DNA of 64,000 nucleotides from Roseibacillus sp. GTDB taxonomy: Bacteria; Verrucomicrobiota; Verrucomicrobiia; Verrucomicrobiales; Akkermansiaceae. Shown in pieces: positions 1 through 62,146 of the stretch (positions are counted from its first letter, which is position 1; each line of letters begins with the position of its first letter). The DNA lies in assembly GCA_965242925.1 (NCBI GenBank), contig CBDEUM010000014.1, positions 224,001-288,000 of the forward strand, read 5' to 3'. A program made the position numbers and the translations under genes. The notes below the pieces were generated by a model. It had not been told where the DNA came from. It saw only the letters and a program-made list of their open reading frames with translations, and ran no database searches.

Positions 1-167
1 TCCTCCCTGCTGAGCGAGTTTGCCAGACCCTCCAGATCGTAGCGGACCAGGAGAGGGCGCCCCTCTCGTGACAAGCCCTGCAGCACATCTGCTTCATAAC
101 GCTCGCCAGTCATCGAGCACTCGAGATGAGTCACGAAGGTCGGCCTTTCCGCAGTAATATTGTCCAT
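1..167 (-). CDS. thrC: Threonine synthase-like PLP enzyme, N-terminal part (runs off window start)
   Basis: Manual translation from ATG at 167: MDNITAERPTFVTHLECSMTGERYEADVLQGLSREGRPLLVRYDLEG..., matching the N-terminus of a threonine synthase subfamily. Not in the ORF track. Confidence 0.7.
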   Translation of the reverse strand, partial: MDNITAERPTFVTHLECSMTGERYEADVLQGLSREGRPLLVRYDLEGLANSLSRE

Positions 168-275
168 CCCGGCCATTCTCTTCCGCTCCTCTGTCCGGCA
201 AAGCCGAAAGCCCCGTTTCTCGACTTTTCCTTGACCCCGGCCTCCTCCGCGGCACGTTCTCTTGGCCCTGAAACC

Positions 276-1709
276 ATGTTCACCCCCCGTTCGACATCCC
301 GGCTCTCCTGGAACCTGCTGGCGATTGTCCTGACCCTTTCCCTCGGCGGGCCAGTGAACGCCCAGCTTATTCAAATCCGGGGCAACGACCGGGTCATCAG
401 CAATGGAGACACCACCCCCAGCGGTGACGATCACACCTCCTTTGGCCAGGTTCTTGCCGACTCCGGACCCGTTGACCGCGAGTTCACCATCCGCAACCTC
501 AGCAGCACACCGCTGCAGATCCTCTTCTTCCAACGCACCGGGCAACACCCCGGCAATTTCACAGTGATCGACCCCCCCGACCTGACCATTCCAGGGAACG
601 GGAATTCCTCCATGACAATCCGTTTCCTGCCACCCGCCGCAAGCGGACTGCGCACTGCCACCATTCGCCTCGTAAGCTCCTCCGTCGTAAACGGCGACTT
701 CCGGTTCGACGTCGCGGGCGAACTGATTTTCCCCTCCCCCAACATCGTGATCTCCGGCAACGGAGTCGTGATTCCGGACGGATTTTCCTCTCCCGTCGTG
801 GGAAACAACACGAATTTCGAAACCCTCGACCTCGACGGCAACCCCCTCACCCGCACCTTCATCATAAGCAACACCGGAGAGCAGGACCTCCGCATCCGTA
901 GCGTCGACGTGGTCGGGATCAACAGTGACCAGTTCTCCATCAGCAGGAACCCCGACACTTTTATCGGACCGGACAGCGAGAGCACCTTCGAGGTTACCTT
1001 CAATCCGACCCGGGAAGGGGCGCACCGGGTCACCGTGCAGATCAACAGTAACGACCCCACCCCGACCGAAAGGATCTACAGCTTCTCCTTGCGTGGCACG
1101 GGACAATCCCTCAGTCCCCGACTCGTTCTCAGCGGAAACGGAATCGATATCACTCCCGACGATGAGACTCCCGGACCGGAGGATCACACCCGGTTCCCCG
1201 ATACCGATCTGCTGTCCGCCTCGACCCGCACCTTCACCGTGCGCAACCCAGGCAACGGCCCGCTCCTGATTGACGCCGTTGAATTCCTTGGTTCCCATGC
1301 GGCCGAGTTCACCGTGACGCAGCCCCCCTCCTCCCCGCTTGAACCGGAAACGGTGTCCAGCCTTCAGATCACTTTTCGACCCATGGTGCAGGGACCCCGG
1401 ACCGCCACTCTGCGCATCACAAGCAACGACCCCGCTCAACCCGTCTACGAAGTCGACCTGGAAGGCATCGGGGGACGCTTCAAGCTCCTTGGAATCGAGC
1501 GGGACGACAACGACGCCCTCATCAATTTCAGCACCACCTCCTCCCCGGGAACATACATCTACCGCATCTTCCACTCCACCGACATGGAGGAATGGGAATC
1601 CGTCGGATCGATTTTCTCCAATGGCAGGGAGACCCTGCAATTCCGCCACCGTAACAGCACCGGAAGCGCCAAGGCGTTCTGGTATGTGGAAGAATCGCGC
1701 TTCGAGTAG
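276..1709 (+). CDS. Secreted protein with three ASH/Ig-like (choice-of-anchor D type) repeats and a short C-terminal beta domain
   Basis: Signal peptide after Met at 276. Three repeats of the pattern IxIxGN...TxF...RxFTIxNxG..L.I...F.P...G.R.AT..I.SND. Confidence 0.75.
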   Translation: MFTPRSTSRLSWNLLAIVLTLSLGGPVNAQLIQIRGNDRVISNGDTTPSGDDHTSFGQVLADSGPVDREFTIRNLSSTPLQILFFQRTGQHPGNFTVIDPPDLTIPGNGNSSMTIRFLPPAASGLRTATIRLVSSSVVNGDFRFDVAGELIFPSPNIVISGNGVVIPDGFSSPVVGNNTNFETLDLDGNPLTRTFIISNTGEQDLRIRSVDVVGINSDQFSISRNPDTFIGPDSESTFEVTFNPTREGAHRVTVQINSNDPTPTERIYSFSLRGTGQSLSPRLVLSGNGIDITPDDETPGPEDHTRFPDTDLLSASTRTFTVRNPGNGPLLIDAVEFLGSHAAEFTVTQPPSSPLEPETVSSLQITFRPMVQGPRTATLRITSNDPAQPVYEVDLEGIGGRFKLLGIERDDNDALINFSTTSSPGTYIYRIFHSTDMEEWESVGSIFSNGRETLQFRHRNSTGSAKAFWYVEESRFE

Positions 1710-21517: not shown

Positions 21518-22123
21518 CTAGGGAGCCGGGAGAGGTGACTTTCCCCACTCAGCCTTCCGGGACTTCCACTCCTCCAGCCCCGGCGTCATCCATTCTTCCG
21601 GATCCACGCCCAGCCCGTCCGCGATCCGATTGATGTAGTTGAAATAACCTATGACCTGTACCGCGATGGTAAGGGCCTCATCATCAAAACCCTCCTTCCG
21701 GAGGGAAATCAGGTCCGCCGCGCCCGCTTCACCCGGGGAGAGCGTGAGCTTCGCGGCGTAGTCGCAAAGCAACCGGTCGGCAGACGGAAGATCCATTTCG
21801 CGATAGTCGAAGACCAACTGCCGCGCCCCTGCCTCATCGCCCGATTCGCGGCCGAACTCGGCCGCGTGCGAGAGGGTTCAGTAGTAGCAGTCGTTGAGGT
21901 TGCTCACCACCGCTGCCAGCATCTCTCGACGGGCCGCCGAGAGCCCGTTGGGCGATTTCATCAGCTTGAGGTAGAACATCATGGAGCCCTCCAGGGCGGC
22001 AGGTTCCCGGCTCATCACCTTGATGATGTGGGCCACTCCGCCAGCCCGTGTCCGCGCGGATTCGTAAATTCTGGCGAGGGCACCTTCCGCCTCTTCTTCC
22101 GGAACCTGCTCAATATAGGCCAT
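21518..22123 (-). CDS. AhpD/carboxymuconolactone decarboxylase-like peroxidase-related protein, probable selenoprotein (CYYU)
   Basis: Track ORFs 21878..22210 and 21518..21817 are in the same frame, separated by one TGA (21878-21880). Read-through gives ...VVSNLNDCYY-U-TLSHAAEF...YAAKLTLSP...YFNYINRIADGLGV, a complete AhpD-like CxxC(U)xxxH protein. Confidence 0.88.
21832..21877 (-). promoter_or_regulatory. Bacterial SECIS-like hairpin
   Basis: After UGA: ACCCUCUCGCA-CGCGGCCG-AGUU-CGGCCGCG-AAUCGGGCGAUGAGG. Perfect 8-bp upper stem; GU-containing apical loop beginning 20 nt after UGA; possible lower stem CCUC-UCGC/GCGA-U-GAGG. Confidence 0.75.
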
Positions 22124-22456
22124 GAGGAATCCAACCGCGGATCGTGGCCCATGGCGATCCTGGAAGCAGTTCTCCACAAGCTGCCTTAGGGCACGTCCGC
22201 GGTCGGCCATGCATCCGGTTTTCGGGCAATCGATCCACTAACTTTGAATATTAATTCTCCTTGAATACTTGATCCGCAGGTTTTTGACGGCGCAGACCTG
22301 GCAATTGTCATTGCCCAGATGAAGATCTCCCGCAAACGACGCGCCCTGCTGGCAGATCCTCTCACCGACAATAGCATCTGTGAGCCCATCCTACCTTTGC
22401 TCCATCATTTCATAATGAGCATGACAGCTCCTGATCAAATGATCAGGGTGTCCCGG

Positions 22457-59998: not shown

Positions 59999-61009
59999 CT
60001 ACTTCACCACGATCTCCACCTGGTTGTCGCGGGCTCCCTCCGGGGCAACACTGAAGGGAACAATCTCAATCTGCCCGGCCGCCACGCCGTGATCCACCAG
60101 AATCTTCACCACGACCTCTGCCCGGAGGCGGGCCAACTGGCTGTTCACAGTCGCGTTCCCATCACGCGCCGGATGCCCTCCTACCGCGTAGCGGGCTCTT
60201 TCCCCCGCCGTGATAATGGCCCTGGCTGCCAGGATGACCTTATCCCGATCCACACTCAGGAGCTGTTCGCTCCCGGGACGGAAGGTCACCACGTTTGCGT
60301 TCAGCTGCCGCCGCAACTGCTCAAGGACTGCCTCGTCGGTCAGCGAGAGCGGCTGGTAACCTGGAAAGTGAAAGGCCGAGGGCCGGAGGTTGAAATCGTC
60401 GAAGACCATGTCCTTGGATACCACCTCACTCGCCTTGGAGAGCCAGTCGCTCCGGAGTCCGGCGGTGGCATCACCGTGCATGGTCAAACCTCCCATCTGC
60501 AGCTTCACACTGCGGTCACCCTGCTCCCGGAAGTAGTAGAGGAGGAACTCCCCCCAATCCCCGACTCCCCCGGGATCTTCCACTATCTCCCGCCGTTTCA
60601 GCCCCTCGTCCCATTCCTCCATCATCTCCAGAGGATCGGGAAGACGCACAGCCAGGGCCTCGGAAACAACCCCCGTCGCAGTGAAACGCTCTCCCCTCCT
60701 CTCGATGCGTAACCACCCATAGGTGTGGAGTCGCTTCCCCTTCCCGGTCATGCGCACCCCCGACAAGGCATCGACGCCGGCAATCACTCGTGCACGCTGT
60801 TCATTAGATTCAACTCTCCCGGAGATCACGGCATCAAGATAATCGAGATGAACGACCGGATCGACGACTCCCTCCGCCTTCAGAACCTCCTTCACCTGAG
60901 CCTCCAGCCCGGGCTTCAGATGGTTGAGAAAGTGCTGCCTATGGAAGTAGCCGATGCTGGGAATCAGCAGCACGATTGCCAACACCACAAACCCCTTCAC
61001 GGCGGGCAT
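59999..61009 (-). CDS. BON-like + OmpA_C-like domain membrane protein
   Basis: N-terminal TM; BON-like segment (AVISGRVES...VDALSGVR); OmpA-like VTFRPGS, VGGH, NSQLARLRAEVVVKILVDHGV, NQVEIVV. Confidence 0.78.
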   Translation of the reverse strand: MPAVKGFVVLAIVLLIPSIGYFHRQHFLNHLKPGLEAQVKEVLKAEGVVDPVVHLDYLDAVISGRVESNEQRARVIAGVDALSGVRMTGKGKRLHTYGWLRIERRGERFTATGVVSEALAVRLPDPLEMMEEWDEGLKRREIVEDPGGVGDWGEFLLYYFREQGDRSVKLQMGGLTMHGDATAGLRSDWLSKASEVVSKDMVFDDFNLRPSAFHFPGYQPLSLTDEAVLEQLRRQLNANVVTFRPGSEQLLSVDRDKVILAARAIITAGERARYAVGGHPARDGNATVNSQLARLRAEVVVKILVDHGVAAGQIEIVPFSVAPEGARDNQVEIVVK

Positions 61010-61133
61010 GGTCGACGAGGGACGGGCTGGCGACAAAAGAAAAATTCGAATCACTCGCCCCCAGCTCCATCGAAAGGGTCCTGATTCCAGGCTGCAAGCC
61101 TGCCCTGAAGTCCTCCCGGACCGGATTCCGGAG

Positions 61134-61973
61134 CTAATCCACCCCGCCTTTCGCCGAGACCCACTTCCCCTTCTTCTTCACGATCTCGAAGGCCAGGCCG
61201 GCTGTCCGGGCAGCTTCTTCGGTCTCTGTCCACTGTTCACGCAGGACCCCCGAAAGGATGAAGGCGCTTCCCGGCCCGAGCGTCCGGCGGATCTTTCCGA
61301 AGGAGGCCTGCAACACATCGGCGAAGAGATTGGCCACCACAACTTCATACTGCCGTTCGACACGCCACTCACGCAGATCCGCCTCCTCCACCCGCACCTC
61401 CTGCGCCCCGTTACGCTCCACATTGTGACGCGCGATTTCCACCGCTTTCCGATCAAAATCAAGCGCCTCGCACTCCTCCGCCCCGAGCAGATTGGCCGCA
61501 ATGGCAAGCACCCCACTTCCGCAACCGAGGTCCAGCACCCGCCAGCGTCCTCCCTTCCGCGCCCTGGCCTCATCGGCCAGAAAACGCAGACACGCGGCCG
61601 TCGTGGGATGATCTCCCGTGCCAAAGGCCATCTCGGGTGGAATACTCACCACCACCCGCCCCTCGTTGAGCAGCAACAGTTCACGCAGCTTCGAGGGCGT
61701 CACTTCCGCAGTCAGGAGGAGGCTATCACGGATCTTGATGGGCGGACCGGGAACAGCCGAAAAAGCCGCCCAGTTTCTATCCGCCACTTCCTTGACCGAA
61801 CCGCCGAACTGCGCCGCGATATCCACCGCCTCTCCTTCTTCCTCACAATAGACATCGACCCGCACCGACCTGCCGCCCTTGAGCCGGGTCAACACTGCAT
61901 TCCGATTCCCGTAAAAGCGCTCCTCCCAGGCATCCTCCCATTTCAACGCCGCCAGTTTCGACCAGACCCACAT
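61134..61973 (-). CDS. prmA: Ribosomal protein L11 methyltransferase
   Basis: MAFGTGDHPTT, VLDLGCGSGVLAIAA, VVANL, ILSGV. Confidence 0.92.
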   Translation of the reverse strand: MWVWSKLAALKWEDAWEERFYGNRNAVLTRLKGGRSVRVDVYCEEEGEAVDIAAQFGGSVKEVADRNWAAFSAVPGPPIKIRDSLLLTAEVTPSKLRELLLLNEGRVVVSIPPEMAFGTGDHPTTAACLRFLADEARARKGGRWRVLDLGCGSGVLAIAANLLGAEECEALDFDRKAVEIARHNVERNGAQEVRVEEADLREWRVERQYEVVVANLFADVLQASFGKIRRTLGPGSAFILSGVLREQWTETEEAARTAGLAFEIVKKKGKWVSAKGGVD

Positions 61974-62146
61974 GGAACCTTCATCCAATCAAATTTGGAT
62001 GGAATGGAGAGTAAAAAAGCCGTGGTCCCTGAAACGCTCCGGCCAGGAAACCGCATCATTTTGGCCCATTGCTGATCCGCTCCCGGCTTGGGATCCAAGG
62101 CCCTCCATTGTCCAGGCCCCCTGCCTGTCCAGGCGCCCGTCGGTGT

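Follow-up and report, generated by a model that had tools for sequence, protein, structure and literature searches.

A reading frame crossed by a single TGA

The window analysed here is the whole 64,000-nucleotide stretch of a Roseibacillus sp. contig (Verrucomicrobiota, Akkermansiaceae), and our subject is a candidate gene on its minus strand for an AhpD-like selenoprotein, with an in-frame UGA followed by a putative selenocysteine insertion sequence (SECIS) hairpin. From an ATG at position 22123 to a TAG at 21520..21518, the frame counts 201 sense codons and contains a lone in-frame TGA at 21880..21878, within the motif N-D-C-Y-Y-U-T-L-S-H (U being selenocysteine, Sec, the putative reading of the TGA). 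The list of open reading frames (ORFs) obtained with genetic code table 11 shows the gene as two pieces, 21878..22210 (110 aa) and 21518..21817 (99 aa). A preliminary description of this DNA had joined the two in frame over one TGA and placed that TGA at the second cysteine of a CxxCxxxH motif; the 201-codon frame bears out the former and the alignment with a solved structure, given below, the latter. The features of the locus are as follows.

21518..22123, minus strand: predicted AhpD-like selenoprotein gene (TIGR01926 'peroxidase-related enzyme'), 201 codons and a TAG stop, with one in-frame UGA
21878..21880, minus strand: UGA predicted to be read as selenocysteine, residue 82 of 201 aa (residue 111 when counted from the ATG at 22210)
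21887..21889, minus strand: TGC, partner cysteine of the C-x-x-U redox motif, Cys in 80 of 81 sequences
21866..21868, minus strand: CAC, invariant histidine four residues past Sec (CxxUxxxH), His in 81 of 81 sequences
21847..21866, minus strand: predicted bacterial SECIS core, 8-bp stem and AGUU apical loop, beginning 11 nt past the UGA
21832..21875, minus strand: possible extended stem-loop with a lower helix around the core, from the minimum-energy fold of 21826..21880, in the window only

Related loci were gathered by a scan of one genome per species, which found 555; the best 80 were kept for all the counts of loci that follow. Three of them are close to the window and will be referred to by their labels: L001 and L002, both contigs of Roseibacillus sp. 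metagenome-assembled genomes (MAGs), and L003, from another member of the Akkermansiaceae. The ATG at 22123 (protein start MAYIEQ) was favoured as the start and is taken to be the correct one, because the N-termini of the homologues coincide with MAYI and because L002 and L003 both carry in-frame stops shortly upstream of the position matching 22123. On the same two grounds, the longer frame opening at the ATG at 22210 was rejected as the gene.

An AhpD-like protein with the UGA in its active-site motif

The read-through protein scored 135.9 bits with the TIGR01926 model (curated cut-off 81.8 bits, E = 1.3e-39) and covered profile positions 3-176 of 178. It just missed the Pfam CMD model (PF02627), with 22.8 bits against a gathering threshold of 23 (E = 9.4e-5) over residues 74-118 only; its membership of the CMD superfamily is assigned from the TIGR01926 score and from the fold. 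The best solved relative is PDB entry 6k40, an AhpD-like protein of Deinococcus radiodurans (E = 7.8e-30, 35% identity), whose C-V-Y-C-A-V-S-H is aligned to C-Y-Y-U-T-L-S-H, so that the UGA falls on the second Cys of CxxCxxxH. The AlphaFold model calculated from a 33-sequence input (predicted local distance difference test score 95.2, predicted template modelling [TM] score 0.91) is an all-helical AhpD/CMD fold with the motif at the predicted N-terminus of helix 80-94. Foldseek matched it to 6k40 with TM-scores of 0.83/0.90 and a root-mean-square deviation of 1.5 Å over 176 columns, and its matches also include 2oyo, 2pfx, 3c1l and 2prr. The AhpD/CMD-like identity first read from the motif is upheld by these three lines of evidence, i.e. 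profile score, alignment and fold.

Glu67, Ser74, Asn77, Tyr81 and His86 are invariant in the 81 sequences (the window and its 80 relatives), and Cys79 is missing from one only, that of locus L037, which has a cysteine codon in place of the TGA and a TxxC motif. Glu67 precedes Sec82 by 15 residues and Cys79 by 12, and we take the resulting spacing, Glu-x11-Cys-x2-Cys-x3-His, to equal that of Glu118, Cys130, Cys133 and His137 in AhpD of Mycobacterium tuberculosis. In that enzyme Cys133, at the second motif position, is the nucleophile, and a Glu/His relay operates. The window protein belongs to the same superfamily as M. tuberculosis AhpD, and the structural match between them is remote: assignment to canonical AhpD of the M. 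tuberculosis type was rejected (score under the cut-off; Foldseek to 1lw1, E = 0.1, TM 0.48/0.54), and the sequence search of the PDB gave no match to M. tuberculosis AhpD at E <= 0.001.

Two other families were considered and rejected. With NF041238 (AhpD_rel_CFYUT; 'hypothetical protein 1' of the Sargasso Sea) the window protein shares an AhpD-type domain and the C-x-Y-U-T motif, but that model has 357 positions, with an extra N-terminal region, and the score was of 68.2 bits against a cut-off of 175, over profile positions 146-341 of 357. With NF053654 the score was also under the cut-off.

Conservation of the codon and of the frame around it

The codon aligned with the TGA of the window is TGA in 79 of the 80 related loci and TGC in the remaining one (L037). 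These loci cover at least eight phyla (Verrucomicrobiota, Planctomycetota, Acidobacteriota, Actinomycetota, Chloroflexota, Gemmatimonadota, Latescibacterota and Marinimicrobia), and both collinear Roseibacillus contigs, L001 and L002, have retained the TGA. In comparison with L001, the closest relative, the part of the gene before the UGA has a ratio of nonsynonymous to synonymous substitution (dN/dS) of 0.069 and the part after it one of 0.074, for dS values of 0.60-0.69: purifying selection acts on one and the same frame on either side of the codon.

The preliminary description had singled out close relatives as the place where an error or a recent nonsense mutation would come to light; the near-uniform TGA among them, the Roseibacillus contigs included, speaks for a genuine codon. 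It had also expected cysteine and TGA to alternate at this position. Such alternation does exist, as judged from the Cys found in 7 of 15 database homologues, but it is lopsided among the close relatives, with a single TGC. For the reading of the TGA as a nonsense mutation or sequencing error of a Cys codon, in a pseudogene or in an ordinary CxxC AhpD-like gene, one can invoke these seven Cys homologues, the TGC of L037, the cysteine of 6k40 and the single base which separates TGA from TGC. Against it stand two facts: 79 of 80 independent genomes, belonging to many phyla, have TGA here, as do both collinear Roseibacillus contigs, and the downstream dN/dS, being 0.074 at a dS of 0.69, is incompatible with an untranslated remnant; this explanation is effectively refuted and we give it almost no credence.

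Among the 15 aligned homologues from protein databases, the UGA column is occupied by Cys in seven, Trp in four and Gly in one, and three begin just past it. Such a mixture of Trp, Gly, Cys and late starts is the pattern expected of gene callers meeting a TGA. The metagenome gene calls which render the Sec codon as Trp (four) or Gly (one) are P0002, P0003, P0004, P0008 and P0009; they presumably come from short contigs called under genetic codes 4 or 25, and are a source of false 'recoded' proteins in large collections of protein sequences. The Cys form of L037 (L037:10244-10321, Acidobacteriota), the sole one among the 80 loci, has lost the first cysteine, TxxC replacing CxxU, and database proteins P0017 and P0018 display the same TxxC pattern.

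Public records do carry the two halves as separate proteins, as would be the case for two distinct genes or for a naturally split protein, with termination at the TGA and restart downstream. However, a single-domain fold would be broken within its CxxC/His active-site motif, the first in-frame start past the TGA is a TTG located 21 codons on, so that the invariant histidine would be lost, and all 79 TGA-containing relatives hold the frame across the codon. We regard a split as highly improbable.

A stable hairpin directly downstream of the UGA

Read on the minus strand, the hairpin consists of a 5' arm (21866..21859), an AGUU loop (21858..21855) and a 3' arm (21854..21847), the arms forming 8 Watson-Crick pairs; the last base of the CAC codon of His86 is the first base of the stem. 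The perfect 8-bp stem and its AGUU loop are as had been noticed at the outset. The distance of 20 nt to the UGA then attributed to the hairpin turned out to be that of the first loop base, the stem itself starting 11 nt past the codon.

The 20-nt hairpin has an energy of -16.5 kcal/mol (z = -4.52), and none of 200 dinucleotide shuffles was as stable. Perfect hairpins with a stem of at least 8 bp and a loop of 3-8 nt are rare in the window, with just 9 distinct ones per strand in 64,000 bases. The 48 nt past the UGA were also compared with 200 synonymous-codon permutations: the observed value was -26.4 versus a mean of -16.2 (z = -3.23, p ~0.01), and a synonymous permutation reaches this stability about once per 200 trials. 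The 8-bp AGUU hairpin is unlikely to have arisen by chance.

In the published model of the bacterial SECIS the loop has 3-9 nt and the stem 4-16 bp, the UGA-to-loop distance is 16-37 nt and the energy lies at or below -7.5 kcal/mol (PMC13188914, legend of Fig. 2A). As worded in the same source, a G occupies either of the first two loop positions and is usually followed by G or U (PMC13188914). The window hairpin lies within all these limits, with a 4-nt AGUU loop on an 8-bp stem, 19 nt between the UGA and the apical loop, -16.5 kcal/mol and, in A-G-U-U, a G in second place followed by U; the initial proposal that it is a bacterial SECIS gains support from this agreement. It resembles the SECIS of Escherichia coli fdhF in that both are stem-loops which follow the UGA immediately and have G-U in their small apical loop, and the upper stem of the minimal fdhF element also begins 11 nt after the UGA. 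It differs from the fdhF element in that the two have no sequence similarity and in that it lacks a bulged U.

L001, L002 and L003 retain at least 5 bp of the stem and the AGUU loop. The extended stem-loop (21832..21875) is weakly supported; its lower helix is absent in L001 and L002. A search of the window and of L001-L003 against Rfam at gathering thresholds gave no matches, and therefore neither supports nor contradicts the presence of a SECIS.

SECIS-like hairpins across the family

With a strict implementation of the SECIS model, allowing neither bulges nor mismatches, a compliant hairpin was found after the UGA in 45 of the 80 TGA genes, versus 1063 of 11,836 (9.0%) other in-frame positions of the same genes. 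After the cysteine codon of L037 there was no compliant hairpin, the best one being at -0.9 kcal/mol. The commonest helix had 81.7% of its cells paired, against 32.5-63.3% when it was slid. Its covariation was 0.213, for a shuffled mean of 0.137 and with none of 500 shuffles as high, a result which is supportive only, since related sequences may beat shuffles without any structure.

The hairpin is placed in at least four registers in the family. One is used by 44 of the 81 sequences, a neighbouring one (the planctomycete register) by 18, and a third by 6; the fourth is that of the window and L001-L003, with an AGUU loop every time, and its hairpin sits 5-6 nt upstream of the family's commonest ones. 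In the window clade, Glu replaces a near-invariant Asp (77 of 81 sequences), and the underlying GAC to GAG change provides the G of the loop (alignment columns 22-50, window 21868..21840). It is possible, though in our view slightly short of an even chance, that the SECIS was here rebuilt in place, i.e. that the Roseibacillus/Akkermansiaceae clade left the common registers for a stronger, upstream GC hairpin whose loop G came from the replacement of Asp by Glu.

Sec could also be inserted with the help of another SECIS, namely a weaker overlapping stem in the planctomycete register (alignment columns 29-34 with 44-49). This register and its neighbour serve, as just seen, 18 and 44 of the 81 sequences, and the window can form 5 of the 6 pairs. 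The sixth, however, is a G-A mismatch in the window clade, produced by the very same Asp-to-Glu codon change; besides, the 8-bp hairpin is far stabler (-16.5 kcal/mol versus a mean of -6.9 for register-78 hairpins), it is the best one in all four members of the clade, and the two structures are mutually exclusive. A role for the weaker stem appears unlikely, and the 8-bp AGUU hairpin is retained as the candidate SECIS in what follows.

Selenocysteine machinery, genetic code and other TGA codons

In some lineages the machinery for Sec insertion lies close to the gene. A tRNA-SeC gene is found within 10 kb of it in 7 of the 80 relatives' loci, and selA (TIGR00474, 507 bits) and selB (TIGR00475, 354 bits) are conserved neighbours in 10-11 of the 80. 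The selB/selA-adjacent loci are L009, L039, L041, L045, L046, L052, L058, L062, L069, L070 and L077, of the Actinomycetota/Thermoleophilia type plus two Planctomycetota; 7 loci also adjoin tRNA-SeC, which in L041 and L058 is about 100-200 nt upstream of the gene. These lineages may have a compact Sec island anchored by the AhpD-like selenoprotein gene.

In the window, TGA is the normal stop of 6 of the 22 family-supported genes; the code is therefore standard, and any read-through must be local. To look for other selenoprotein genes, codon usage was screened around 210 in-frame TGA sites, each flanked on either side by no fewer than 40 open codons, a requirement which short genes may fail. Two of the 210 sites had coding-like flanks on both sides, the first being the TGA of the AhpD-like gene. 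The second coding-flanked site, a TGA at 61991..61989 (minus strand) located upstream of a prmA-like gene, was rejected as an ordinary stop or non-coding. The prmA-like methyltransferase gene itself occupies 61134..61973 (minus strand; NF001785, 141.5 bits, below the cut-off of 188), and a 373-aa plus-strand ORF antisense to it (60954..62075) is probably spurious.

Two further observations concern Sec-related matches. At L003:13660-13753, 3.4 kb from the gene, ARAGORN reported a 94-nt 'tRNA-???' with a two-base anticodon, for which Rfam gave no match and which is not supported. In the window, the product of 126..1709 (plus strand), a 527-aa choice-of-anchor D protein, matched the OS_HP2 (seleno)protein model weakly and in part (32.7 bits, for a cut-off of 100), which probably reflects a mere sharing of domain architecture.

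Weighing the selenocysteine reading

Several results run counter to the reading of this UGA as Sec under the control of the hairpin. In terms of structure, longer segments did not differ significantly in stability from their dinucleotide shuffles (z = -0.83 for 66 nt and -1.91 for 55 nt), and in L001 one pair of the stem is broken (C-A), which leaves 5 bp. At the level of the family, 35 of the 80 TGA genes fail the strict SECIS model; synonymous permutation gave a weak signal (mean z = -0.45, with 12.5% of the genes below -1.64); and RNAalifold, run on 80 aligned sequences, yielded no single common structure, a consequence of the different registers in which the subgroups have their hairpins. 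As to the genome, the 64-kb window contains no tRNA-Sec, selA, selB or selD (50 ORFs scanned; no tRNA gene and no Rfam match), and the TGA screen disclosed no second selenoprotein gene in it.

The lack of Sec machinery in the window bears directly on another explanation, whereby a near-cognate tRNA for Trp or Cys, or a reassigned code such as tables 4 or 25, would let translation pass the UGA without Sec, as might happen in a lineage which no longer has that machinery; the four Trp and one Gly of the database calls could be seen in the same light. These residues are gene-caller choices on short contigs, however, and no evidence of decoding; TGA is a functional stop in the six window genes mentioned above; a strong SECIS-like hairpin is kept in the clade; and the loci of relatives adjoin tRNA-Sec, selA and selB. 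Read-through without Sec is, we think, very unlikely. That the organism is itself competent for Sec insertion is suggested, at the level of sequence, because the collinear Roseibacillus contigs keep both the TGA and the hairpin and because loci of other lineages adjoin the machinery.

Taking everything together, we consider it very probable that the locus is a single gene of the AhpD-like CxxU selenoprotein family (TIGR01926 / COG2128), specifying a thiol/selenol oxidoreductase with Sec at the UGA.

Proposed decoding and catalysis

By analogy with the established bacterial mechanism, the hairpin 3' of the UGA would act as a SECIS: SelB, in complex with GTP and Sec-tRNA(Sec), would bind the apical loop, with its G as second base, and bring Sec to the UGA in the ribosomal A site. 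The product would then be the full 201-aa protein and not an 81-aa fragment. Sec82 would be found in the first turn of the helix, with Cys79 three residues before it and His86 four after it, and, if AhpD is a guide, its selenolate would be the attacking nucleophile, with His86 and Glu67 assisting as their counterparts do in the M. tuberculosis enzyme. Sec82 may in this way reduce a peroxide or an oxidised partner peroxiredoxin; Cys79 would resolve the intermediate as a selenenylsulfide, to be re-reduced by a cellular dithiol donor. We infer Sec insertion in this organism, the substrate of the enzyme and its reductant from these parallels. Among the 50 window ORFs scanned, there was no ahpC or peroxiredoxin gene.

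Relation to known proteins

The 6k40 protein, which has Cys at the position of the predicted Sec within the aligned CxxCxxxH motif, is, we presume, DR1765 of Zhao et al. 2020. Deletion of the D. radiodurans gene is reported to increase sensitivity to H2O2, the CxxC cysteines being required for full complementation (PMC8945050).

The preliminary description had mentioned that AhpD-like selenoproteins were known from environmental sequences, and the literature agrees. AhpD-like CxxU selenoproteins were described from the Sargasso Sea in 2005, with 27 sequences assigned to COG2128 (PMC1088965), and the 'AhpD-like 1' group of the Global Ocean Sampling data, in 2008, counted 299 selenoproteins along with 902 Cys homologues (PMC2398784). 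A review of 2026 has an entry 'AhpD-like protein, TIGR01926, CxxU' (PMC13188914), and BSepDB carries a page for the AhpD-like selenoprotein family (PMC13326102). The window protein shares with this family membership according to the hidden Markov model, the predicted Sec at the second motif position, a SECIS-like hairpin, the existence of Cys homologues and a marine bacterial origin. There is no essential difference between them; the window clade has its own hairpin register, with the AGUU loop.

Genomic context and public annotation

The segment 20665..32000 of the window is collinear, gene for gene, with L001 and L002, at tblastx identities which are mostly of 70-94%, and this collinearity assigns the window to a Roseibacillus-like member of the Verrucomicrobiota. 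The three have in common the AhpD-like gene, a downstream gene for a 221-aa membrane protein and a TPR/TolQ/OmpA-like cluster; L003 has the AhpD-like gene alone in common with them. Analysis of conserved neighbours revealed no functional partner for the window clade, L001 and L002 sharing the gene and its collinear flanks only. Just before the ATG lies a short stretch (22124..22145, minus strand) which includes a small inverted repeat (ATCC ... GGAT); the stretch recurs almost unchanged in L001 and in similar form in L002. The likeness to L001 persists although the coding dS is about 0.6, and this stretch may be a regulatory or ribosome-binding feature; a scan for promoters and terminators around the AhpD-like gene gave nothing above chance.

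It had been anticipated that annotation pipelines would make two genes of this one, and they do: the exact 81-aa, 110-aa and 99-aa pieces exist as separate database proteins (halves of 81 or 110 aa, and of 92 or 99 aa), and in records of Roseibacillus MAGs the pieces are adjacent entries named 'hypothetical protein', 'alkylhydroperoxidase family enzyme' or 'peroxidase'.

Significance

A literature search pairing Roseibacillus with selenocysteine found no report. What is new here is limited to the host lineage and the annotation gap, as the family, its CxxU motif and its SECIS have been known since 2005-2008 and have a curated model. The value of the finding is chiefly one of annotation, since a textbook selenoprotein is cut in two by standard gene callers. 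For the organism, it marks a marine verrucomicrobial lineage as a likely selenium user and adds one more antioxidant or redox enzyme to those it may possess. For the family, if the SECIS of this clade was indeed rebuilt in place, then an RNA element, and not protein function, would have dictated an amino-acid replacement beside the active site.

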